62,336 bases of DNA from a virus (Duplodnaviria > Caudoviricetes), in the IMG/VR virus record IMGVR_UViG_3300045972_000062, positions 1 through 62,336 of that record. One strand, 5' to 3'. Shown piece after piece: positions 2,368 to 60,525 of the stretch (the first letter of the stretch is position 1; each line of letters begins with the position of its first letter). The position numbers were made by a program, and so were the translations under genes. The notes below the pieces were generated by a model. It ran no database searches, was not told the origin of the DNA, and saw only the letters and a program-made list of their open reading frames with translations.

Positions 2368-2957
2368 TGACAAGGATTGCATTTACATTCGGACTTATGT
2401 TATTTGTAGCTTTGATAGCTACTTCTGCATTTTATTACAACAAGAGCCTTAAAATTGCCGGATTAGAGATTCAGAATAGAATTTCCGAAGGAAAGGTTGT
2501 TACTTATAAGAACAATGAAGGTCATTGGGTAACTTGCTTGCAGGAACGTAATGCTACTATTGAGGAATTAAAGCATAATTTAGCAGTAAAAGAAGTTGGA
2601 GTTAAGCCAAGGCAAGTTTCTAGCGTTTCTACTAACACTACAGAACGTGTAGATACGTTTTTTATGCCTATTAAACACGATACGGCTTACATAATACTTA
2701 ATGGAGTAAAAACTATCGATTCTGTAACTAAAGTATCTTACAAGGATGCCTTTTATGACATTAATGGCGTAATATTTAACAATGACTTATTTAGGTTAAA
2801 TATAAAGTCATTTGATAGTATTACTCAGGTAGTTAAGAGATATAAGGAAGGATTTGTGTTATTAAAACCGTTCAAAAGATGGAAGTATCAACAGTTCGTT
2901 TTTTCATCAAATCCTAATTGTAAAATTAAATTTTCAGAGTACTTAAAAATAAAGTAA
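2367..2957 (+). CDS. spanin-like membrane-anchored lysis protein (DUF6549-like)
   Basis: N-terminal TM, coiled coil, DT-rich beta region; directly follows the endolysin. Confidence 0.6.
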   Translation: MTRIAFTFGLMLFVALIATSAFYYNKSLKIAGLEIQNRISEGKVVTYKNNEGHWVTCLQERNATIEELKHNLAVKEVGVKPRQVSSVSTNTTERVDTFFMPIKHDTAYIILNGVKTIDSVTKVSYKDAFYDINGVIFNNDLFRLNIKSFDSITQVVKRYKEGFVLLKPFKRWKYQQFVFSSNPNCKIKFSEYLKIK

Positions 2958-3799
2958 TGAAATTAGAAGACATCATATACGACATACGTACTTTAATGGA
3001 TCAGTCCAGCGAGGATTCTCGACTGGATGATTCTTTTTTAGCGTATAAGATAAACGAATATCGGGCGTTATTAATCCAAAAGAAATATGCCGAAACAAGA
3101 GAGATTGATCCTATATGGTTACAATCTATTCCTATTTCTCAATTTACTTGCGTAGGAACCGGAGATGATCCTAATGTTTTAGGTGAAACTACTCGTTTAG
3201 GAAAGTGTACTCTTCCTGCGGTGGTGTCATTGCCTAGAAATTTAGGGTTATATAGAATGTCTTCAAGTTCAAGACAGAAACAGATATACCCTACTACGGA
3301 GCATGAGTTTTATATGATGTTAGAAACCGGAGATGACAGGTTAAGGCATTTTGAATATTATTATCCAATAGGAAAGTCGCATTATATTTATCCATATAGA
3401 GAAAAAGGAACAGCGACATGTATTTTAGAAAATCCATTAGAAGCACAAGGGAAGTTAACAGAGATAATCTCAAACGGAAATTTATTAGCTGGAACAGATT
3501 ACATAGTAACTCAGGAAGCGATAGTGTACGGAGGAGTGATGTATCTTCCAGGTCAGCTATTAACAGCATCGACAACAAACGGTAGTTTCTATGAAGGTTC
3601 CGGGGTGTTATTCTTAAAGAATAAATTATATACTCTTGATACTAGAGATGATTATCCTTGTGATGCCGGCATGGCAGAAATGATTATTATTGAGGTGTTA
3701 ACTAAAGACTTTAAGTTAGAATCGTCATTTGTTACTGATTTGCGTCAGGATTTTGCCGACCATTCTAAAGTTATGAGGGCTATGATTTCTAAAAGATAG
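2957..3799 (+). CDS. tail ring / tail tubular protein (crAss-like)
   Basis: N-terminal LxDIIYDIR...YRALLI and C-terminal DDYPxD features; position before IHF-ring-muzzle genes as in Crassvirales. Confidence 0.75.
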   Translation: MKLEDIIYDIRTLMDQSSEDSRLDDSFLAYKINEYRALLIQKKYAETREIDPIWLQSIPISQFTCVGTGDDPNVLGETTRLGKCTLPAVVSLPRNLGLYRMSSSSRQKQIYPTTEHEFYMMLETGDDRLRHFEYYYPIGKSHYIYPYREKGTATCILENPLEAQGKLTEIISNGNLLAGTDYIVTQEAIVYGGVMYLPGQLLTASTTNGSFYEGSGVLFLKNKLYTLDTRDDYPCDAGMAEMIIIEVLTKDFKLESSFVTDLRQDFADHSKVMRAMISKR

Positions 3800-3803
3800 T
3801 ATT

Positions 3804-4208
3804 ATGTTAACTAAAGGACTTGAAGATGTGATAGATGTAATGATGGACAAGAAGTTCAAATATCGTCATTTAGGCAAGGATAACATAACTGTTATTATGC
3901 AGCAATACTTCAAAAAAAGCAGGGCGGTAATTGAGTCTGGAGAACCATTTTCATTTCCTAATAGATTTGGCACCATGCAACTTGAATTTAGGAAGAGAAA
4001 AGTTAATGAAGAAAAGCCTTTTGGAGCTTTTTTAATACCGGATAAAATTATTGTAGCATTAGGATATTGGGCTTACATTGACTTTAGAAGTTCTCATATA
4101 ACTATAAATTTAGGATATCAATATAAAGCTTGTAAAAAGTTTATAAAATGGTTTAATCATAAGTTATTTACTACCGATTATTTTTACGAATTAAAAAACA
4201 AGAAATGA
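3804..4208 (+). CDS. IHF/HU-like DNA-binding protein of the crAss-like virion module
   Basis: IESGEPFSFPNRFGTM motif; conserved position between ring genes. Confidence 0.7.
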   Translation: MLTKGLEDVIDVMMDKKFKYRHLGKDNITVIMQQYFKKSRAVIESGEPFSFPNRFGTMQLEFRKRKVNEEKPFGAFLIPDKIIVALGYWAYIDFRSSHITINLGYQYKACKKFIKWFNHKLFTTDYFYELKNKK

Positions 4209-4954
4209 GCATAGCAAGAAAGATTTCGATAAAAAAGGCATTAATGAATGTCGTAGACGAAACGAGCGAAGATGTAGCAAGAGAATTGCCTTTAATGTAC
4301 AAATGGGCTTTGCATATCAACCGAAAGATAGATAGTATAAATCAGTTAACAAGAAGCGTTACAGTTATTGATGTAGTTGGATGTACGGTTCAGATCCCGG
4401 CACATGTAGAACATGTTGTTGCTATTGTTATGGGAGATAACGGATGTTGTTGTGATGCTTTTTGGAACTTGAAAGATAATACTTATGTTTGGGAGCCTGT
4501 ATCTCAGATTAGCCAAATAGGTGTTACTAATATATATGCTTTTGTTGATGATTTGTGGGAAGGTCAGAATGATTTAGATTACCATATTCAGGATGATAAG
4601 ATTGTATTTACTAGAAACTATACCGGTAAAAAAGTAACATTACTAACATTAGGTTACGAGCAAGACGAAGAAGGAAGTCCTTTGGTTAGTGAAAATAACG
4701 TAGATGCTATTGTTAAGTATGTAAAGTTACAAATGGCAGAAAGAGAGAAATGGAAACTTATGAAAAAAGCTGTTCCATTAAATCAAATTTCGGCAGAAAT
4801 AAATGGCTTAAGGTCAGAGGTTAATTATTATGTAAGTCAAGCCAGAGATAATAGTAATGAACTTTCTAAATCTCAGCAATCTCAGATTTCAAATTTATTA
4901 AATAATCCTATAACCGGATATAGAACTTACTTATTACAAAACTCTTGGATTTAA
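4205..4954 (+). CDS. tail ring protein (crAss-like)
   Basis: YHIQDDKI...VTLxxxG...DEEGSPLV motif; directly precedes the muzzle gene. Confidence 0.75.
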   Translation: MSIARKISIKKALMNVVDETSEDVARELPLMYKWALHINRKIDSINQLTRSVTVIDVVGCTVQIPAHVEHVVAIVMGDNGCCCDAFWNLKDNTYVWEPVSQISQIGVTNIYAFVDDLWEGQNDLDYHIQDDKIVFTRNYTGKKVTLLTLGYEQDEEGSPLVSENNVDAIVKYVKLQMAEREKWKLMKKAVPLNQISAEINGLRSEVNYYVSQARDNSNELSKSQQSQISNLLNNPITGYRTYLLQNSWI

Positions 4955-28841: not shown

Positions 28842-29444
28842 ATGATAACGGAAGTGATAATGAAGCGAGAGTTATTTGGGTGTCAAATATCTCAAAAAAG
28901 CAAGAGCGAGTTTTTTAGTGCTACGGACTTGGTGAAGGCAGGTAATAAATGGAGAATGTCTAACGAGATGGTTGGATTTAATCTTGGAGCTTATTTTAAA
29001 AGCGTTAAAGCTAAAGAGTTTATTAAAGAAGTTGAGGGCAAATATGGGGCTTCCATAATTTCAGGTAGAGGAAGAAACAGTCATACGTGGGTTCATCCTT
29101 TAGTATTTATAGATATAGCTTTAGATATAAATCCAAAGTTGAAATTAGAAGTTTACGAGTGGATTTTTGACCAGTTAATTAGGTTCAGGAATGATTCAGG
29201 AGATTCTTACAGGCAAATGTCTGCAGCAATATTCTCTAGGTATCAAAACGTAAGAGAATTTCAAAAGTATATATCAGGAATTGCTATCTGTATTAAAAAT
29301 AATATTGGAGTTAAAGACTGGGAGCATGCTACTGAATGTCAACTGAAAAGAAGAGATAAGATACATAGTAGTATTGTTACGTTAAGTAACGTAATGCAAG
29401 ATACTGATGCTATAGTTAGGCTTGCTATTGAAATTAATAAGTAA
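28842..29444 (+). CDS. KilA-N domain DNA-binding protein
   Basis: FFSATDL, GRGRxxxTWVHPxVFIDIA, RNDSGDSY. Confidence 0.88.
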   Translation: MITEVIMKRELFGCQISQKSKSEFFSATDLVKAGNKWRMSNEMVGFNLGAYFKSVKAKEFIKEVEGKYGASIISGRGRNSHTWVHPLVFIDIALDINPKLKLEVYEWIFDQLIRFRNDSGDSYRQMSAAIFSRYQNVREFQKYISGIAICIKNNIGVKDWEHATECQLKRRDKIHSSIVTLSNVMQDTDAIVRLAIEINK

Positions 29445-35603: not shown

Positions 35604-36314
35604 CTACCATTCTTCTTTTACTGCTCCGATTTCATCTGTAGGATTGTTGATCCCGGTTTGATCTACATCTGTTTGAACTGAAGAGTTTGCAGTTTTGTAC
35701 TCATTGGAGTTTTTAAGTTGCTCTACTCTCCACTGCCATTGTTTAGGAACTGCAGCTAATTCTTCTTCAGTATAATCAAGAACATCAAGAATAAGTTCAG
35801 GCATTATAGCTGGAGGAACTGTTACTCCTTTCATCACTGGAGATATTGATTTGATCTTTAAGAATGAATTACCTTTCTTTGTTACGGCTTTCTCTACGTT
35901 AAGAGTACAAGCTTTACCAAGTAAGTCGTAAAGGTTAAAAGCTTTAGCTTCTGCTGTTGTGCCGAACTTTTTAGGATTCCAAGCTTGCATAGCTTTGAAT
36001 AACCCGGACTTGTCTGAAATGATTTTAGAAAATTCAATTGCTGCAGTAAAAGGTTTTTCTCCTTCGCCTTCCCAGAACTCAGCAATCTCAGTAGGTAGTT
36101 CGAACTCTAAAACAATAGCATCTTTGAATTCTTTATTACCGAATCCTCCACTGCCATCGTCTTTGCCGAAAAATTGGTTTGGTTGATTACCGATAGCATA
36201 GATGCCGAATAATCGTGCTGAGTAGGTTCCTGACTCAGGATATGCTACTTCTAATCCCTTTCCTGTTCCTTCAGGAATAATCATTGCTTTGCGTTCTCTT
36301 TTTGCTTCTGACAT
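35604..36314 (-). CDS. ssDNA-binding / replication protein (NGO0469-like)
   Basis: GTYxAR..G.Q, FELP.E, KSxL, LLGKAC.L.V; acidic C-terminal tail. Confidence 0.75.
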   Translation of the reverse strand: MSEAKRERKAMIIPEGTGKGLEVAYPESGTYSARLFGIYAIGNQPNQFFGKDDGSGGFGNKEFKDAIVLEFELPTEIAEFWEGEGEKPFTAAIEFSKIISDKSGLFKAMQAWNPKKFGTTAEAKAFNLYDLLGKACTLNVEKAVTKKGNSFLKIKSISPVMKGVTVPPAIMPELILDVLDYTEEELAAVPKQWQWRVEQLKNSNEYKTANSSVQTDVDQTGINNPTDEIGAVKEEW

Positions 36315-36359
36315 AATGTTAAGTGTTTAATTGTTTATATATAAATGTTAATTAGTAAT

Positions 36360-36668
36360 TTAAAATCCGTAGCCGTAGCCGTAGCCGTTGCCGTAGCCGT
36401 TGCCGTTGCCGTTGCCGTAGCCGTAGCCGTAGCCGTCGCCGTCGCCGTTGCCGTCGCCGTTGCCGTAGCCGTAGCCGTTGCCGTAGCCGTTGCTGTAGCC
36501 GTTGCCGTTGCCGTAGCCGTTGCCGTTGCCGTTGCCGTAGCCGTTGCCGTAGCCGTCGCCGTAGCCGTTGCCGTCGCCGTCGCCGTTGCCGTTGCCGTAG
36601 CCGTTGCCGTCGCCGTCGCCGTAGCCGTTGCCGTCGCCGTATGAATTCTGAGAATTTTCAAAATTCAT
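36360..36668 (-). CDS. Gly-X (X = D/N/Y) repeat protein, 102 aa
   Basis: ATG 36668 (MNFENSQNSY) lies 8 nt after the upstream stop. Confidence 0.7.
   Translation of the reverse strand: MNFENSQNSYGDGNGYGDGDGNGYGNGNGDGDGNGYGDGYGNGYGNGNGNGYGNGNGYSNGYGNGYGYGNGDGNGDGDGYGYGYGNGNGNGYGNGYGYGYGF
36366..36642. repeat. hexamer tandem repeat GCCGT(A/T/C), about 46 units
   Basis: Seen directly in sequence. Confidence 0.95.
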
Positions 36669-36676
36669 GGCGATTC

Positions 36677-37006
36677 TTATATTTGAGTCCATTTGGTTTT
36701 GTCTACAGTCAAGGTGTGTACTACTGTTAGCCAGTCGAACTCTACTACGCCTTCGCATTTGTCAAGTTTAGTAGAAGATGTTGCTCCGTGTACTAATTCA
36801 GGAAGACCTTTTGTCGTCCCCCATGACCTAATATTGTAGGCATTTAGTAATTTGCAATCATTGCCTTCTCTTACGAATTTACCGATGTAAATCCATCCAC
36901 GTTGTAGGACTACTATCTTTATGTCACCGTTAAATGCAGGTTGCGTTTTAATAGAATCTTCTCTAACGTACTTAACGTTATCTATTGTTATTGTTTCTGG
37001 TGTCAT
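36677..37006 (-). CDS. Sm/SH3-fold-like protein (DUF6948-like)
   Basis: IVVLQRGWIYIG...IRSWGTTKGLxEL. Confidence 0.65.
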   Translation of the reverse strand: MTPETITIDNVKYVREDSIKTQPAFNGDIKIVVLQRGWIYIGKFVREGNDCKLLNAYNIRSWGTTKGLPELVHGATSSTKLDKCEGVVEFDWLTVVHTLTVDKTKWTQI

Positions 37007-51941: not shown

Positions 51942-52074
51942 CAAATATACTACAAGTTATAATACTGTGCAAGTATTTATGTAACTATTTTTACATAAAA
52001 ATGAAAATAAATTATAACTACCTGAGATTCAATCTAGTAATTTTTGCATATTACTAAAAATAGTTTTATATTTG
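51942..52074. promoter_or_regulatory. divergent Bacteroidota promoters
   Basis: Minus TTG-N20-TATATTTG (51972-51942); plus TTTG-N20-TATATTTG (52043-52074). Confidence 0.8.
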
Positions 52075-52454: not shown

Positions 52455-53590
52455 TATAAGATTTACTAATCTTAATTTCGGTGGCAGAAAAGAACAGAGA
52501 AGCAAACATACTACATAACATATAAGAATAACATAAACACAACAGGCGAAGCCTGAGCGAAGCGAAGAAACAAAACAAGTTACGCAACTATTACAAGCAT
52601 ACTCAAGCAATAGCCTATATAAGCTTTGAAAACAACTAACAGCAATCAATAGTATTATATAGGCTTTCATGTGCTACATAACTACACGAATATGTGCAAT
52701 ATAATAGCACAATTCTAGCCTAATTACACTGCATTACAAGCGTTTACGTATCTATCCAATAGAATACACTATCAAGCAAAACAGCCGCCTAAAACAAGCA
52801 ACAAAAACCATAAAAACACGTAAAAAATCGCGCTACCCATACAAGCGGCTCTTGGAACTGCTTATTTGCGCTGTTGTTCTCTGACTATTTATGAACGTTC
52901 GGCAGTCAATTACGGCAGTAGATTTATGTAGATTTAGGTCAGATTATGGCACAGGAATGCTACAAAAGGCGTTTAACCGTCAATTCGGGGGTATTTTATG
53001 GGTATTTTTGCGAAAAGTGTAATTATGGAGTTTGTTGGCTAGCAGATAGTTAGTCTTGTTCGTTCCCCGTGGAGTATCAAGTCTAAAAAATGGAAAGTGT
53101 AATTACGAATTGAGTGCATTTGTAGGCTATTGCAGGCTATTGTATTGGTTTGACTTGTAGGATCGCAAGCCTTGTAGGTTAGCTTAGTGTTGTAGGTTGA
53201 TAGATGATATAAAGTTTAGTTGTGTTGCTTTGGTTGCGTCTGCTAACTATTGAACGCCGAACACTAGCAACGGCAAGCACTCGACTGCGCCGCCACCACG
53301 TTTATAAATTGCAAGCCTTTCAAATTTATATGCCGGCATGCTGAATTAATTCCATTCCAAATAAGGAAGCAACAAGCATACAAGAGGGTAACGCTTGAGA
53401 AAGTCAAGAAAAAGTATTGCAACCCGTTAATTTTTGCCTGAGAACTAAAAAACACTCCCCCGTACACCAAGCATCGGGTGGAAATCTCCGGCTGCGCCTC
53501 CGTCACTATGTAGGCATAGCAATAAAAATTTTTTATTTTATTTTATTTTTTTGAGTTGCATTTGACCGTTCAATGACAGCTGTAAAAATT
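52455..53590. other. non-coding region with skew inversion, dyad elements and GCGAAGC hairpins (candidate origin or genome end)
   Basis: AC-rich left arm, GT-rich right arm, nested short inverted repeats. Confidence 0.45.
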
Positions 53591-53593
53591 TTT

Positions 53594-54304
53594 TTATTTT
53601 ATTTTTTTGAATTTATGGCTATATATTTTTTTAAGTTCTTGAATAGTTTGTGAGAAAGAGGTTATGTAATTCATTTCGATTGCGAAAGCTATTTTTCGTT
53701 CTAGTAGTTCTAGTTCTTTTAGTTGATTTTGGGAAGCGGACTGTCTTATTCCGGTAATATGTTTATTAAACACTATAAGATTTAGAGCTACGGCAAGTTC
53801 TTTATAGTTTGGGTTTTGGAATTTGGATATTTGATTGGTAAGTCCTTTGTACATATTTCCGGCTTCTATACGGTTAAGTATTAGTTCATCTGTAAGCCAA
53901 GTAACGGCTGTTCCGTATATTTCTGGGGAGAACTCCATTGCAAGTAGCATCCATACGTATGGGTTCGCCCAGGTTGTCTTTGTTTGTCTGGCTCCGGTAG
54001 TTTTCCACGCTCCGATTTCTTTAAGGTATTTTGTAATTCCCTTATTTTTAATGTGTTCTATAAACGTAGACATTTCTATGTTTATAACTTCCTGATTTTT
54101 AAGTATATAATATATACGTTCTTTATTATCTGTTCTTGCTATGACTTCTGAGGTATGTTTTACGGAGTATCCTGCTATGATATTTCTTTGTTTCGCTACT
54201 GTTTCTAGGTCTGAGATGCACAGCATTGAGTTTTTTGTTTGTTGTCTTATAGTTGTACCGAAGAGTGTTCTATCGGAAGATGTCATTATTACATTTGTTT
54301 CCAT
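53594..54304 (-). CDS. KilA-N-like protein
   Basis: ISDL...TWANPYVW...EFSPE..W..D.LI..R..AG..Y; start at ATG 54304. Confidence 0.8.
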   Translation of the reverse strand: METNVIMTSSDRTLFGTTIRQQTKNSMLCISDLETVAKQRNIIAGYSVKHTSEVIARTDNKERIYYILKNQEVINIEMSTFIEHIKNKGITKYLKEIGAWKTTGARQTKTTWANPYVWMLLAMEFSPEIYGTAVTWLTDELILNRIEAGNMYKGLTNQISKFQNPNYKELAVALNLIVFNKHITGIRQSASQNQLKELELLERKIAFAIEMNYITSFSQTIQELKKIYSHKFKKIK

Positions 54305-56193: not shown

Positions 56194-57072
56194 TTAAAAT
56201 AACTCAGGTTTAGTTTGTTTTATCTTTACTGTAGTTAAAAAGAATAATGTTTTAAAATTTATTGTAGGGTTTTTAAATTCCTTAACAAAGTTCCAGCACT
56301 CTTCAGTAACTAGGCAATAGTAAATTACATTTAAAAGTCTTGGAATCATTTTAGAACTACAGCCGGATTCGTTTTGTATTTTACTAAATTCCTTATCTAT
56401 CAATGATAATGTTACATATTTGTTTACAATATCTTGCTCAATAATATTACATTCTTTTAGTTCTGTAATTTGAGTTTTAGAATGTTTTGCTTTAAATTCA
56501 TTTGTAACAATTTTAGCCCAAGTTATTCTACCGAATTTATTTTTAAAGTTATAATTTTTAATTACTATACCTTCTCCAATACCTTTACCATCTTCAATAA
56601 GGTAACCATTTTTTTCTAATTGATTCTGTAATCTTTCGTATATAGGATTATCTACCTTGCATATCGGAGGAATATATTCTATACCGAACTCTTCTAATAT
56701 TGATTTATATGTTTCGTATGTTAAATATTCTCCACCATTAGTAACATCAAAGACATAGAAATTATTCCACGAATCTTTATTATATGTTCTTAATGAATGA
56801 GGCACTAACCATTCTCCGTATAATCTAATTGTAGGATATTTTTCAAATAGTTTATAAAAGCAAATTTGCTTTACAGCCCAATTGTAAAATCCGGCATTAT
56901 CATTATCTAAAGATAACTGTCTATTTCTACTACCAGCTTGTATAGCTTCATTAAACCATAGTTGAGAGTTCGTTCCATCTATTTTAGGAAACACATAGCA
57001 TGTTCCATATTCTATTCCTTCTGTTTCGACTGTTCCAAGTCTTTCTACGTGTTGATATTTTTCAAATTCCAT
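56194..57072 (-). CDS. ATP-dependent RNA ligase (Rnl2-like)
   Basis: KIDGTN (motif I), YGEW, FYVFDV, EGIVIK, AKIV; start at ATG 57072. Confidence 0.85.
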   Translation of the reverse strand: MEFEKYQHVERLGTVETEGIEYGTCYVFPKIDGTNSQLWFNEAIQAGSRNRQLSLDNDNAGFYNWAVKQICFYKLFEKYPTIRLYGEWLVPHSLRTYNKDSWNNFYVFDVTNGGEYLTYETYKSILEEFGIEYIPPICKVDNPIYERLQNQLEKNGYLIEDGKGIGEGIVIKNYNFKNKFGRITWAKIVTNEFKAKHSKTQITELKECNIIEQDIVNKYVTLSLIDKEFSKIQNESGCSSKMIPRLLNVIYYCLVTEECWNFVKEFKNPTINFKTLFFLTTVKIKQTKPELF

Positions 57073-57095
57073 AACAATATTCTTTTTAAATAACA

Positions 57096-57210
57096 AACCC
57101 TCTGTCAGGTAGAGCAAGTACCATCGGAGGGTTCTATGGATTATTAATCCAGTTTCTTTGTTCACATCCTTGCTCGATGTTAGTCTTTCGAAGAAGACAT
57201 TACAAATATA
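57096..57210 (-). promoter_or_regulatory. promoter plus structured leader (loop-pairing hairpin) of the RNA ligase gene
   Basis: TATATTTG at 57210-57203; hairpin loop CTTGCTC complementary to upstream GAGCAAG. Confidence 0.6.
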
Positions 57211-57964: not shown

Positions 57965-58636
57965 TTAGTTTTTAATTGTTAATTTAAAATTTTCGGTAAA
58001 ATCAAACATTCGCCTATGTCTTTCATCTTTTGATTTTTTTTGCTTAAGCATGTTTATATTTAATATTTGCAATCTATTCATTAAGTCTAACTCTTGTTCT
58101 GTTGCTAAATCTCTCTTACCTCCCTTAACTTCTCCAAAAACTAACTTGTTTAAATAATTTGCTTCCTTAACAAACAATAAAGGGTCTGGCTTACTTCCGT
58201 AACAATATTCATAACGATTAGTCATAACATCACACATCTCTTTATAATGATCTCCTGCTTGATGCCTAAAGTCTATCAAGTTATCATATACCCATTTTAT
58301 TACCTTAACTTCAAATTCAGGAGATAACCAAAAGCAAAACTTAACAAACAAATAAGGATGAACCCAAGTAGCCCCATATCTTCCACGCTTAGAATCAATA
58401 ACTTCCAATTGTAGGGAATCCCCTATATTTAAAAGTTCATTTTTCAAAGCTTCAATAAACCCCTGAGTGCCTTGATTGCTAAAAAATTCCGCAAGAACTT
58501 TATTCGTAATGTTTTCGTTTTTGTTGTTATTAAAGTATTGCAGCATCTCTGTTGCATTGAAGAAAGAATCAGAAGTCCTTTGAGAAACAATAGCATCATC
58601 AAAGTTTCTTTTCATTATATGTTCAGTCTTTAACAT
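57965..58636 (-). CDS. KilA-N domain protein
   Basis: QRTSDSFFNATEM, RGRYGATWVHPYLF...WLSPEFE; promoter TTG-N20-TATATTTG at 58689-58659. Confidence 0.9.
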   Translation of the reverse strand: MLKTEHIMKRNFDDAIVSQRTSDSFFNATEMLQYFNNNKNENITNKVLAEFFSNQGTQGFIEALKNELLNIGDSLQLEVIDSKRGRYGATWVHPYLFVKFCFWLSPEFEVKVIKWVYDNLIDFRHQAGDHYKEMCDVMTNRYEYCYGSKPDPLLFVKEANYLNKLVFGEVKGGKRDLATEQELDLMNRLQILNINMLKQKKSKDERHRRMFDFTENFKLTIKN

Positions 58637-58794
58637 TTGTTTTAGTTTTAATTATACACAAATATACATACAAATAAACTTAGAAGCAAGAATAAATAAA
58701 CATTTAATGTTAAATAAATTAAAAAATGTTAACATATAAAAATAACGTGTTAAATATTTGCACAATTAAAAAAATTTCTTTTACTTTGTTTCAA

Positions 58795-59250
58795 TTATTA
58801 AAGAATGCTGTATTAGATTTCATATCTTTTAACGAGGGTCTTTAGTAATTAACATGAACAAGAAATAAGAAACCTTTGGACGGGCTCAGGAGTAAGATTA
58901 TATAGGACAATGTCCAATAGAATAAAAAGCCTGATAGAGCCCGTCCAAGTTATCAGGCTTTGTTATTTTAGTCAAGTTTGGACGGGAAGAACAGTAACGT
59001 CAGCGAATATTGATTAGTAATCTCCTACTGGGATAGCGACAGGAGTACCCGAATACAAGTGAGAACGGGAAAGCGGATTGCGTGCCATCTAACACGTTTA
59101 GCTCACATAAGAACCGAATTATATGGATAGGTTCTTCGAAGCGATAGACCCGATGCCTACAAGCATTGTGACAGCTAAAGCAGGAAGTATCAAAGTTGAA
59201 ATTTAACAGTTTCGGCTTTGGATTTCCTACGCCTTCTCTCCTGAGCCCTC
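58795..59250 (+). ncRNA. candidate large structured RNA
   Basis: Near-consensus promoter at 58757-58788; several stems with G-U pairs on +; 11-bp long-range helix 58882-58892/59238-59248. Confidence 0.55.
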
Positions 59251-59673
59251 CTCCTTAAGCATAGCAACAAAAAACAAAGAGTATCCCTAGAATCTCCTGA
59301 GTTGTTATATAGTACGCACGAGCGTATACACGCATGACGCACGCACGAGGAAACCGTAACTAGACAACATTACCTCCCAAAAATAAAAAGATAGTAATTC
59401 TTAAATGTTACGCTTTAAATTAAATTCGAGGGATAATTTATATGCCGTAAATAAGAAAAGCAAATAGATGCGATTTAAGACGTTAAAATAGTTTAGATGA
59501 CAAAAGTATTAACTCTAGTACTAAAGTCTTAAAATTAGCCATCCTGATTGCTAAAAAAGGATATTGTGTAAATTTAATTGATGCCGGAAAATTAAAATAA
59601 GTTCTAGTTTGTTCGAGAAAGTAAGAGAATCTCGTAATTTTACGTCTAGGTTACGTCTAGATTTTTATGCCGT

Positions 59674-59705
59674 AAAAGAGAAAGGCAGATGAAATGTCAC
59701 CTGCC
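59674..59705 (-). terminator. intrinsic terminator after the tRNA-like element
   Basis: GGCAGGTGA-CATT-TCATCTGCC-TTTCTCTTTT. Confidence 0.7.
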
Positions 59706-59760
59706 AACGATAGGACTAGAACCTACGACCAAAGGTTCTAACCAACTGAACTACGTTTTT
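59702..59760 (-). ncRNA. tRNA-like element lacking the anticodon arm
   Basis: TA-GTTC-AGTTGGTTA-GAAC (D-arm), CTTTGGTC, GTAGG-TTCTAGT-CCTAT (T-arm), CGTTGGCA. Confidence 0.65.
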
Positions 59761-59903
59761 ATCTCTCGAACGTTGGATCCACTTTCCTTTTGCAATTTTC
59801 GGGTTTGCTAACCTTATCAATACATTTTTCGTATTGCTAATGCTAAGGTAATTAATATTTGTTTACGAAATCGATTTTATGACATTTATTTAATGCCGTA
59901 AAT

Positions 59904-59997
59904 AAAAAAGAGCCACCGGATGGCAGCTCTTGAAGTTGAATTGAATTGTAAACAAATAACAGTGATGAGGAAGGATCGGAACGAACGAATAAATTAA
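59904..59997 (-). ncRNA. candidate ~95-nt sRNA
   Basis: Promoter TTG-N20-TATCTTTG (60034-60004) and terminator AAGAGC...GCTCTTTTTT (59931-59904). Confidence 0.55.
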
Positions 59998-60061
59998 GTT
60001 CATCAAAGATAAGAAATTATTACTAAACTATCAATATTTATTAAATTTAACAACAATAGAC

Positions 60062-60091
60062 TTGTAATTTAAATATAATTCACTATCTTTG
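60062..60091 (+). promoter_or_regulatory. Bacteroidota promoter
   Basis: TTG-N19-TATCTTTG. Confidence 0.78.
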
Positions 60092-60111
60092 GTATAACAA
60101 ATTAAGTTTAC

Positions 60112-60525
60112 ATGAAAAGAAAAGTTGCAGTTGATTTTGATTTGACAATCTGTGTGTCAGAACATAAAGATGGAGTTACGTATATCATTAGAGATAATGA
60201 AGGAGCTAAAGAAGTTGTTAAGAAGCTTATTGATTCCGGTAATGAAGTTTTTATTTGGACTGCAAGAGATAGCAAGAATATGCCGGAAGTAAATAAGTGG
60301 GTTAAAGATTCAGGATTAAAGTTTGCCGGAATAAATGAAGATCCAAAAGCAACAACCGATTCACGTAAACTAAGATTTGATATTCTTATTGACGACAAAT
60401 CATTAGGATGTCCATTGAAGTATGATCGTAAGATAAACAAGGATGGAGAGTTTGAAAACTCAGGAGAACCTTACGTAGATTGGGAGCGAGTTGCAAGTTA
60501 TCTTAAACAAGAAAAGTATTATTAA
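60112..60525 (+). CDS. HAD-superfamily phosphatase (capless; BT0820/PNKP-phosphatase-like)
   Basis: DFDLT (DxD), WTAR, K...D..IDDK. Confidence 0.85.
   Translation: MKRKVAVDFDLTICVSEHKDGVTYIIRDNEGAKEVVKKLIDSGNEVFIWTARDSKNMPEVNKWVKDSGLKFAGINEDPKATTDSRKLRFDILIDDKSLGCPLKYDRKINKDGEFENSGEPYVDWERVASYLKQEKYY

Follow-up and report, generated by a model that had tools for sequence, protein, structure and literature searches.

A candidate early noncoding RNA with a predicted length-dependent fold switch in an uncultured, distantly crAss-like phage

Introduction

What does a long gap without open reading frames (ORFs) contribute to a phage genome when part of it is richer in GC than its surroundings and carries inverted repeats that share their arms? 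The question is raised by IMG/VR record IMGVR_UViG_3300045972_000062 (Duplodnaviria; Caudoviricetes), a linear entry of 62,336 bp, approximately 80% complete, which we analyzed as a whole and refer to as the window. In this record a noncoding gap at 58637-60111, comprising 1.47 kb without an ORF, separates a leftward from a rightward gene block. A preliminary description of the sequence had proposed that 58795-59250 specifies a structured noncoding RNA of approximately 450 nucleotides (nt) in which two folds compete. The account that we tentatively prefer, giving it slightly less than an even chance, is that the + strand is transcribed early into an RNA whose built-in antiterminator makes a terminator-like hairpin (hairpin T) a stop for leftward transcription only, and that this RNA refolds once it has grown to a certain length.

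Results

Three perfect helices that interlock

Perfect inverted repeats of at least 11 base pairs (bp) occur three times in 58795-59260 (466 nt). The mean after shuffling is 0.026, and none of 500 dinucleotide shuffles reaches three. These repeats (11-12 bp) interlock: two of the helices have an arm in common, and the second arm of one of these two forms the loop of the third. The elements involved are as follows.

58876..58887, + strand: segment a (TTGGACGGGCTC), the 5′ arm of the putative antiterminator helix (helix A), overlapping the 5′ arm of the long-range helix
58937..58948, + strand: segment c (GAGCCCGTCCAA), the 3′ arm of helix A and also the loop of hairpin T
58926..58969, + strand: hairpin T, terminator-like, with an 11-bp stem (58926-36/58951-61), a 14-nt loop and a U-rich tail to 58969 (GUUAUUUU)
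58978..58986, + strand: segment a′, a second copy of TTGGACGGG, an alternative partner for c that is unused in the predicted ensembles (P 0.00)
58882..58892, + strand: 5′ arm of the long-range helix, GGGCTCAGGAG, forming a perfect 11 bp with CTCCTGAGCCC
59238..59248, + strand: 3′ arm of the long-range helix (segment z), CTCCTGAGCCC

Helix A is a perfect 12-bp helix (58876-87/58937-48). The 11-bp pairing of 58882-92 with 59238-48, pointed out in the preliminary description, is indeed perfect, and with its flanks the long-range helix amounts to 17 bp in all (58878-96/59233-51), interrupted by one bulge and one internal loop. Segment z is overlapped by a 24-nt tract (59233-59256) in which 22 of the 24 positions are pyrimidines on the + strand, purine-rich on the - strand, and which ends in CCTCCTTA. 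Hairpin T has a U-run on its - strand side as well; it is omitted by our consensus terminator scan, which allows loops of 3-8 nt only. A pseudoknot of segment a′ with the T loop is possible. A loop size of 14 nt is common to several hairpins of the region, which is not significant (113/1000 shuffles), and the common 14-nt loop was rejected as a motif for this reason.

A predicted fold that flips with transcript length

What the computations show are the helices and their statistics, a bias toward one strand and an abrupt flip that depends on length; the flip was obtained by scanning ViennaRNA ensembles over 18 different 3′ ends. For 3′ ends from 58950 to 59245, helix A has a probability of 0.90-0.91 and T a probability of 0.00. 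The long-range helix still stands at 0.00 when the 3′ end is at 59245, and for 3′ ends from 59249 on it reaches 0.99, with T at 0.97. This flip from helix A to the long-range helix plus T is unchanged at 10, 20, 30 and 37 °C. In a transcript ending at 58972, folds containing helix A dominate and the fraction of T is 5e-9, helix A being favored over T by approximately 12 kcal/mol at this length; in one ending at 59260, the long-range helix is at 0.93, T at 0.77 and A at 1e-4. Helix A and T appear to be mutually exclusive even as a pseudoknot, because the linkers would measure 0 and 2 nt. The competition between two folds that had been proposed for this region is thus reproduced, the ensembles flipping once the 3′ end passes 59249, and computation, for one sequence, supports the notion of a switchable RNA.

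Two features of transcription attenuators are present: a hairpin followed by a U-tract lies downstream of a promoter-like site, and an alternative pairing, made by helix A through the T loop, excludes the terminator. A regulated downstream gene and a sensing step were not found, and no aptamer, leader peptide or binding site was recognized.

Promoter-like site and choice of strand

Which strand would carry such an RNA can be judged from the following additional elements.

58757..58788, + strand: promoter-like site, with -33 TTTG at 58757-60, a 20-nt spacer and -7 box TTACTTTG at 58781-88; predicted start near 58795
58795..58848, + strand: hairpin H0, AU-rich, at the 5′ end; -10.5 kcal/mol on the + strand and -4.3 on the - strand
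58969-59016, 59022-45, 59048-69, 59072-103, 59109-36 and 59141-81, + strand: inner hairpins of the predicted fold, weakly supported
59182..59228, + strand: hairpin H9, 21 bp of which 5 are G-U; -20.3 kcal/mol on the + strand and -8.1 on the - strand; P 0.95

The upstream arrangement TTTG-N20-TTACTTTG, which had been read there before, is found at 58757-88 and matches 11 of the 12 consensus positions of TTTG/TAnnTTTG, which we take to be the sigma-A motif of Bacteroidota, with TAnnTTTG as its -7 box. The spacing between the -33 and -7 elements is identical in full-consensus sites at 52043 and 54363 of the same phage. Over both strands of the window there are 96 TAnnTTTG sites, and such a site lies 21-38 nt upstream of 10 of the 63 listed gene starts.

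The minimum free energy of 58795-59260 on the + strand is -131.7 kcal/mol (z -3.83; 0/100 shuffles as good), and the - strand has a z of -2.16 (4/100 shuffles as good). The strongest folding signal is that of the 5′ 178 nt (z -5.10 on the + strand; 0/200 shuffles). Three hairpins, namely H9 (59182-59228), H3 (58969-59016) and H0 (58795-58848), are 6-12 kcal/mol stabler on the + strand owing to G-U pairs; for H9, this suitability for the + strand had been noticed in the preliminary description. Its stems CTCCT/AGGAG (59022-45), CCCG/CGGG (59048-69), AAGAACC/GGTTCTT (59109-36) and 59182-59228 are all where it had placed them, and among the inner hairpins a clear + bias is seen only for 58969-59016 (-9.9 vs -2.0 kcal/mol). 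An excess of A over T extends on the + strand across 58800-59700. The + strand is thus favored by the G-U pairs, the z-scores and the Bacteroidota-type promoter. To judge from the order of the segments, moreover, the interlocking helices would be useful only on the + strand, because on the - strand T would form first, ending the RNA before the partner segment is made.

The folding signal is concentrated in the 5′ 178 nt and in the hairpin at 59182-59228, and the approximately 450 nt of structured RNA first proposed were too generous. It is conceivable, although we consider it unlikely, that only the 5′ part is functional, as a small RNA or leader of approximately 175 nt (58795 to about 58969) made up of H0 and a long rod, with the downstream domain and the long-range helix being incidental or belonging elsewhere. 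Besides having the best z-score by far (-5.10, with -1.88 for the middle), the short RNA would extend helix A into a long irregular rod, its U-tail paired to an upstream A-rich run, and the unit would consist of a promoter and a hairpin with a U-tract. However, T is predicted to be absent from the short RNA (5e-9), so there is no evident stop at 58969. Moreover, a segment of the 5′ part has a perfect partner of 11 bp at long range, which makes one of three repeats where 0.026 are expected, and a strong, + specific hairpin, H9, sits downstream.

The U-runs on both sides of T are also what a bidirectional terminator would have. In such an arrangement a short + RNA would converge with a - transcript of approximately 450 nt from the TATTTTTG box at 59385-78, both ending at T, and the - transcript might encode a peptide of 26 or 50 amino acids. 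The - strand TAnnTTTG box at 59385 is 35 nt upstream of the GTG of a 50-amino-acid ORF (59342-59190), inside the 21-38 nt range of real genes, and the GC skew at 59100-59400 favors G on the - strand. But the candidate - strand transcript (59372-58915) is unstructured (z -0.45), a correctly spaced -33 TTTG is lacking, and the 96 sites of the window on two strands predict about one such -7 box per 1.3 kb. In addition, the peptides lack a Pfam match above noise, and the interlock of a, c and z and the G-U hairpins of the + strand would be left without a role. A convergent pair is thus, in our judgment, very improbable.

Coding, family and module searches

The region is GC-richer than its surroundings and ORF-free, as first described: its GC content is 0.42-0.44, compared with a window mean of 0.331 (standard deviation 0.043, 300-nt windows), and no ORF of at least 60 amino acids is found in 58795-59250 under genetic code table 11 or with TAG read as Q. 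Table 4 yields only a 65-amino-acid frame on the - strand with one reread codon. A recoded ORF (TAG=Q, TGA=W) was rejected, since no + strand frame of at least 60 amino acids is open. No Pfam family above noise was found for seven small ORFs.

No covariance model of Rfam 15, a collection that includes GOLLD, ROOL, HEARO, OLE, group I and II introns, 6S and RNase P, matched anywhere in the window at gathering thresholds, and at E values up to 10 the segment 58790-59400 gave only microRNA and small-RNA noise of at most 20 bits. The + strand has no transfer-messenger RNA (tmRNA) or tRNA according to ARAGORN at its default or relaxed threshold, nor is the Rfam tmRNA model among the matches at E up to 10; as a positive control, the same model detects the tmRNA of Cellulophaga phage phi14:2. 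A tmRNA, tRNA or intron on the + strand was rejected on the basis of ARAGORN and Rfam. The 62-kb contig contains no match to tyrosine integrase (PF00589), which would be expected of an attP module, or to reverse transcriptase (PF00078), which would be expected of a retron; at approximately 80% completeness, neither result proves absence from the phage as a whole.

Searches for relatives

The homolog search that had been suggested as a check yielded no relative in the collections covered, which comprised eight viral, two metagenome and two genome scans; neither an RNA homolog nor a syntenic phage relative was found, and the element is present as a single copy within its own contig. With blastn, the 1471-nt gap had no match among 50,697 phage records. 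A 561-nt core, searched against the same records at E up to 5, matched only two, both through the same 38-nt piece of a Lactobacillus phage coding sequence (E 2). In viral contigs, a 15-mer search returned 32 stretches, a stem pattern nine and a repeat-pair pattern ten, none of them similar beyond the seed. A pattern combining three motifs found 71 stretches in metagenome contigs, all unrelated (mostly a conserved high-GC gene or repeat arrays) and without a blastn match.

Searching through the neighboring proteins gave a similar outcome. The RNA ligase is the only neighbor with many relatives (26 viral loci, 50-70% identity); 22 of these 26 loci share the ligase alone with the window, none has RNA similarity, and of the whole records of 20 ligase loci, eight give only matches of 13-21 nt with E values of 0.055 or worse. 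The KilA-N protein led to two viral loci, neither syntenic, whereas a 259-amino-acid protein, the HAD protein and the primase-helicase have no relatives in viral contigs. For a 149-amino-acid protein, none of 573 pattern matches in metagenome contigs is a relative. Genome contigs contain no KilA-N relative and four ligase loci with the ligase alone in common. Among 401 genomes of one Bacteroidota class (that of a Lutibacter metagenome-assembled genome), 14 had matches, all of 23-58 nt and at chance level. A sequencing-run index listed no RNA run and two DNA runs, the first probably derived from the source sample and the other with only unlike pieces of 35-91 nt.

This absence of homologs from every collection searched would also be expected of nonfunctional decayed or foreign DNA, left over, for instance, from a tRNA/tmRNA island or from a small mobile element whose termini were 11-bp inverted repeats. 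Within an AT-rich genome the region stands out as a GC island, a degenerate tRNA-like sequence is located on the - strand at a distance of 450 nt, and phi14:2 has a tmRNA in a comparable intergenic region. However, the sequence occurs only once in the contig, no transposase, integrase or reverse transcriptase was found there, and neither ARAGORN nor Rfam detects a tmRNA or tRNA on the + strand. Decay does not typically leave three perfect helices that interlock, or a 21-bp hairpin with G-U pairs, and we doubt strongly that the region is such a relic.

Genomic setting and probable host

The leftward block includes genes for a KilA-N protein (57965-58636) and, at 56194-57165 on the - strand, for an RNA ligase, and the rightward block opens with a phosphatase of the HAD/polynucleotide-kinase-like type (60112-60525, + strand). 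The ligase (PF09414, phrog_548) and the phosphatase (phrog_1238, weakly phrog_415) form an RNA-repair-like pair that flanks the gap and adjoins its RNA-like elements. The ligase is a mobile module, being 50-72% identical in 26 unrelated viral contigs and four bacterial genome assemblies. Two KilA-N-type proteins, one at each gene-block end, are encoded at 28842-29444 and 57965-58636 (phrog_6095 and phrog_129).

The phage encodes a primase-helicase whose nearest cultured relatives are from phages of Flavobacteriia (at most 31% identity), and the C-terminal third of a 1400-amino-acid virion protein has its best cultured matches in g071 of phi14:2 and in crAss-like phages (24.5% identity, E 4e-16). 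Based upon these matches, the host is probably a member of Bacteroidota, and the sequences place the phage in a deep, essentially singleton, distantly crAss-like lineage. An 1841-amino-acid protein yielded no match, and none of five large proteins checked carries the DFDxD RNA polymerase motif.

Repeats, relics and small RNA candidates elsewhere

The preliminary description had mentioned origin-like repeats downstream of the structured region. Three 22-nt repeats with the core TATGCCGTAAA are present (59438-59459, 59663-59684 and 59889-59910), spaced 225 and 226 nt apart. Each follows just after a hairpin on the - strand, two of these hairpins being terminator-like (59931-59908 and 59705-59684), and a palindromic variant, ATGCCGGCAT, occurs in the second long gap at 53330-53339, where a TAnnTTTG box on the - strand adjoins it. 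The repeats are thus confirmed, but their origin-like character is not supported: the 225-nt spacing, the - strand hairpins and the palindromic variant elsewhere fit an operator or promoter motif better, and the repeats may be a DNA-binding or promoter- or operator-associated motif rather than iterons.

A related alternative, which we regard as rather unlikely, explains the structured region itself at the DNA level. Nested palindromes and ATGCCGTAAA repeats would be protein-binding or cruciform sites of an origin or early regulatory region, possibly with an origin-opening or priming transcript. The location between divergent gene blocks is suited to this, beside a stretch of 17% GC (58600-58799), and the skews change sign in the region. 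The motif occurs three times in the gap and has eight matches with at most one mismatch in the window (1.17 expected), its palindromic variant lies in the other long intergenic region, the phage encodes its own primase-helicase, and length-dependent refolding is also known for the ColE1 primer, RNA II. Yet hairpins that depend on G-U pairs and a folding asymmetry of + over - are meaningless for duplex DNA, and arms with alternative partners are typical of RNA switches and not of operators. The 225-nt spacing of the repeats is unlike that of iterons, and no initiator gene was identified. Pyrimidine-rich RNA disfavors a persistent RNA-DNA hybrid, and the RNA just 3′ of segment z is pyrimidine-rich. 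The earlier suggestion of a replication primer RNA is not supported, as nothing specific was found that points to a primer.

The tRNA-like relic on the - strand (59702-59777) scores 27.6 bits with the Infernal tRNA model (gathering score 29, E 0.0035) and lacks the anticodon arm. At the relaxed threshold only, ARAGORN reports it as resembling tRNA-Pro(UGG), with an acceptor stem of 6 bp. The relic leads directly into the terminator-like hairpin 59705-59684, and its cloverleaf has a competitor in an alternative hairpin of 8 bp, TAGAACCT/AGGTTCTA. Because of this relic and the terminators, the gap is shown to hold more than one element. Also on the - strand, a candidate small RNA of approximately 95 nt at 59900-60011 has a TATCTTTG box at 60011-60004 and the terminator-like hairpin 59931-59908 followed by a U-run; the folding z of 59900-60100 on this strand is -3.33. 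Together, these observations suggest that the rest of the gap contains small - strand RNA genes and a DNA-binding motif.

Two other parts of the window were considered as similar elements. The second ORF-free gap (52670-53594, 0.9 kb) reaches a GC content of 0.44 at 53200-53500, and was rejected as a paralogous RNA because its z is about +0.7 on both strands and only short words are common to the two gaps. The GC peak at 36300-36700 was rejected because it codes for a Gly/Tyr/Asn/Asp repeat protein. The highest GC content of the contig (up to 0.65) lies there, at 36360-36650 on the - strand, in a low-complexity GYGNGDG-like repeat within a small protein.

Discussion

The following sequence of events would accommodate the computed folds, and for transcription, read-through of T and a function of the closed form it goes beyond them by inference. 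Host RNA polymerase would transcribe the + strand noncoding RNA from the site at 58757-88, starting near 58795. In the nascent RNA, segment a (58876-87) would pair with c (58937-48), and T would be unable to close as the polymerase reaches its U-tract, because its loop is c, held by helix A. Read-through would result, with helix A serving as a built-in antiterminator. Transcripts arriving leftward would reach T without this competitor, and therefore T would stop leftward transcription only. Once 59238-49 has been made, z would capture a, with AGGAG at 58888-92 as a toehold. This pairing would close a domain of approximately 370 nt by the 17-bp stalk, free c and let T form, which would then present c in its 14-nt loop. 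Because refolding follows synthesis of 59238-49, the mature RNA would be a different molecule from the nascent one. The stalk could, in addition, be a processing site.

A number of points weigh against this proposal. The evidence comes from one sequence without a homolog, hence without covariation. Folding was modeled at equilibrium only, pseudoknots and kinetics being outside the model. The 14-nt loop of T is unusually large and atypical of terminators. The middle 265 nt (58970-59235) barely beat shuffled sequences (z -1.88; 10/200 as good), and downstream folding is weak (z -1.52 for 59250-59420 and -0.12 for 59250-59660). As for the perfect helices, they show strand symmetry and could be DNA sites; in the -7 box at 58781-88, a T takes the place of the conserved A of the consensus, and the GC skew of the + strand is negative at 59100-59400. 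Furthermore, the terminator scan finds no + strand terminator after the RNA and no gene follows directly; the next + strand ORF, at 60112, is preceded by a separate TATCTTTG box at 60083-90 (60084 in the count of TAnnTTTG sites). Finally, an antiterminator that is always on needs an extra factor if it is to regulate anything.

Some of what is proposed here has counterparts in known systems. In the attenuators of plasmids pT181, pIP501 and pAMbeta1, a complementary RNA binds the nascent leader and thereby lets a terminator form. As in these systems, a promoter-proximal hairpin with a U-tract is excluded by the pairing of an upstream segment, the choice would be made during transcription, and the exposed c loop could act as their complementary RNA does. 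However, the antiterminator here is approximately 12 kcal/mol stronger than the terminator and pairs with the terminator loop rather than its stem, no sensor is known, and no gene lies within 1.1 kb downstream. The possible "antisense" loop is, moreover, on the same RNA, and would appear only after the long-range refold.

The ColE1 primer RNA II is likewise a transcript of several hundred nucleotides with many stem-loops, whose 5′ region swaps partners as the chain grows. Unlike that system, the phage has a primase-helicase, and we identified neither an antisense gene resembling RNA I nor an origin, a G-rich segment that could form a hybrid or a site for RNase H; similarity in sequence or to an Rfam family is also lacking. 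In mRNAs for toxins of the hok type, pairing of the 5′ and 3′ ends similarly switches the 5′ fold, and nascent, full-length and 3′-trimmed RNAs differ. In contrast to these, the + strand here has no ORF for a hydrophobic toxin, its only ORF being of 35 amino acids and without a family match, and no antisense gene was identified.

Another point of comparison is phi14:2, a crAss-like phage of Cellulophaga. Two of its long intergenic regions are described as being transcribed early and rightward, above most genes, by the virion RNA polymerase, with a function given as unknown (bioRxiv 10.1101/2020.03.07.982082). Like them, the region studied here is long, ORF-free and heads an early gene block, and the two phages, both linked to Flavobacteriia, have a distant virion protein in common. 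A host-type promoter is predicted here, however, in place of the virion RNA polymerase there, and beyond AT-rich noise no sequence similarity to the phi14:2 intergenic regions was found. Of these two regions of the phi14:2 genome (NC_021806), the one at 4031-4502 reaches 46 bits with the tmRNA model (gathering score 47, E 2.6e-16), and the one at 2935-3545 is not unusually structured (z -0.07). Homology to the phi14:2 RNAs was thus rejected, since these regions are dissimilar and either not unusually structured or tmRNA-scoring; the resemblance concerns their place in the genome and their kind, and does not extend to a common family. Reports of tmRNA genes in other flavobacterial phages also came up in a literature search. 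Separately, approximately 100 nt within the second of these regions (NC_021806, 3256-3364) have counterparts of 74-75% identity in seven records of Cellulophaga phages phi4:1 and phi17:2, where the DNA is unannotated, and may be a small conserved RNA.

By analogy with phi14:2, our best guess is that the RNA proposed here would be a stable early regulatory RNA, comparable to the abundant early intergenic RNAs of that phage. Its exposed c loop may act on nascent copies, restoring termination. Extending this idea, the RNA might be a self-timing regulator. Its antiterminator would convert a two-way terminator into a one-way gate, and a toehold-driven refold, set off when the segment at 59238-49 is complete, would expose a 14-nt loop perfectly complementary to the nascent 5′ segment of the RNA itself, such that finished RNAs could bind growing ones in trans and force a stop at T. 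This would amount to autogenous feedback on early rightward transcription, akin to copy-number control, exerted by a single RNA species with no protein or separate antisense gene. We offer this extension as speculation, and think it quite unlikely to be correct in full.

What we present is a well-defined, testable prediction and not a discovery. If real, it would be a natural RNA of compact design that sets its fold by its length, with one segment acting first in an antiterminator and afterwards forming one side of the stalk that closes the domain. To our knowledge, almost no RNA-level regulators of early transcription have been described in Bacteroidota phages, and such an RNA would bear on the timing of early transcription in these phages, on the role of the abundant early intergenic RNAs in crAss-like phages and on the design of co-transcriptional RNA devices. 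Moreover, the GC-rich gaps of other AT-rich uncultured phages can be screened for switches of this kind from a single sequence.

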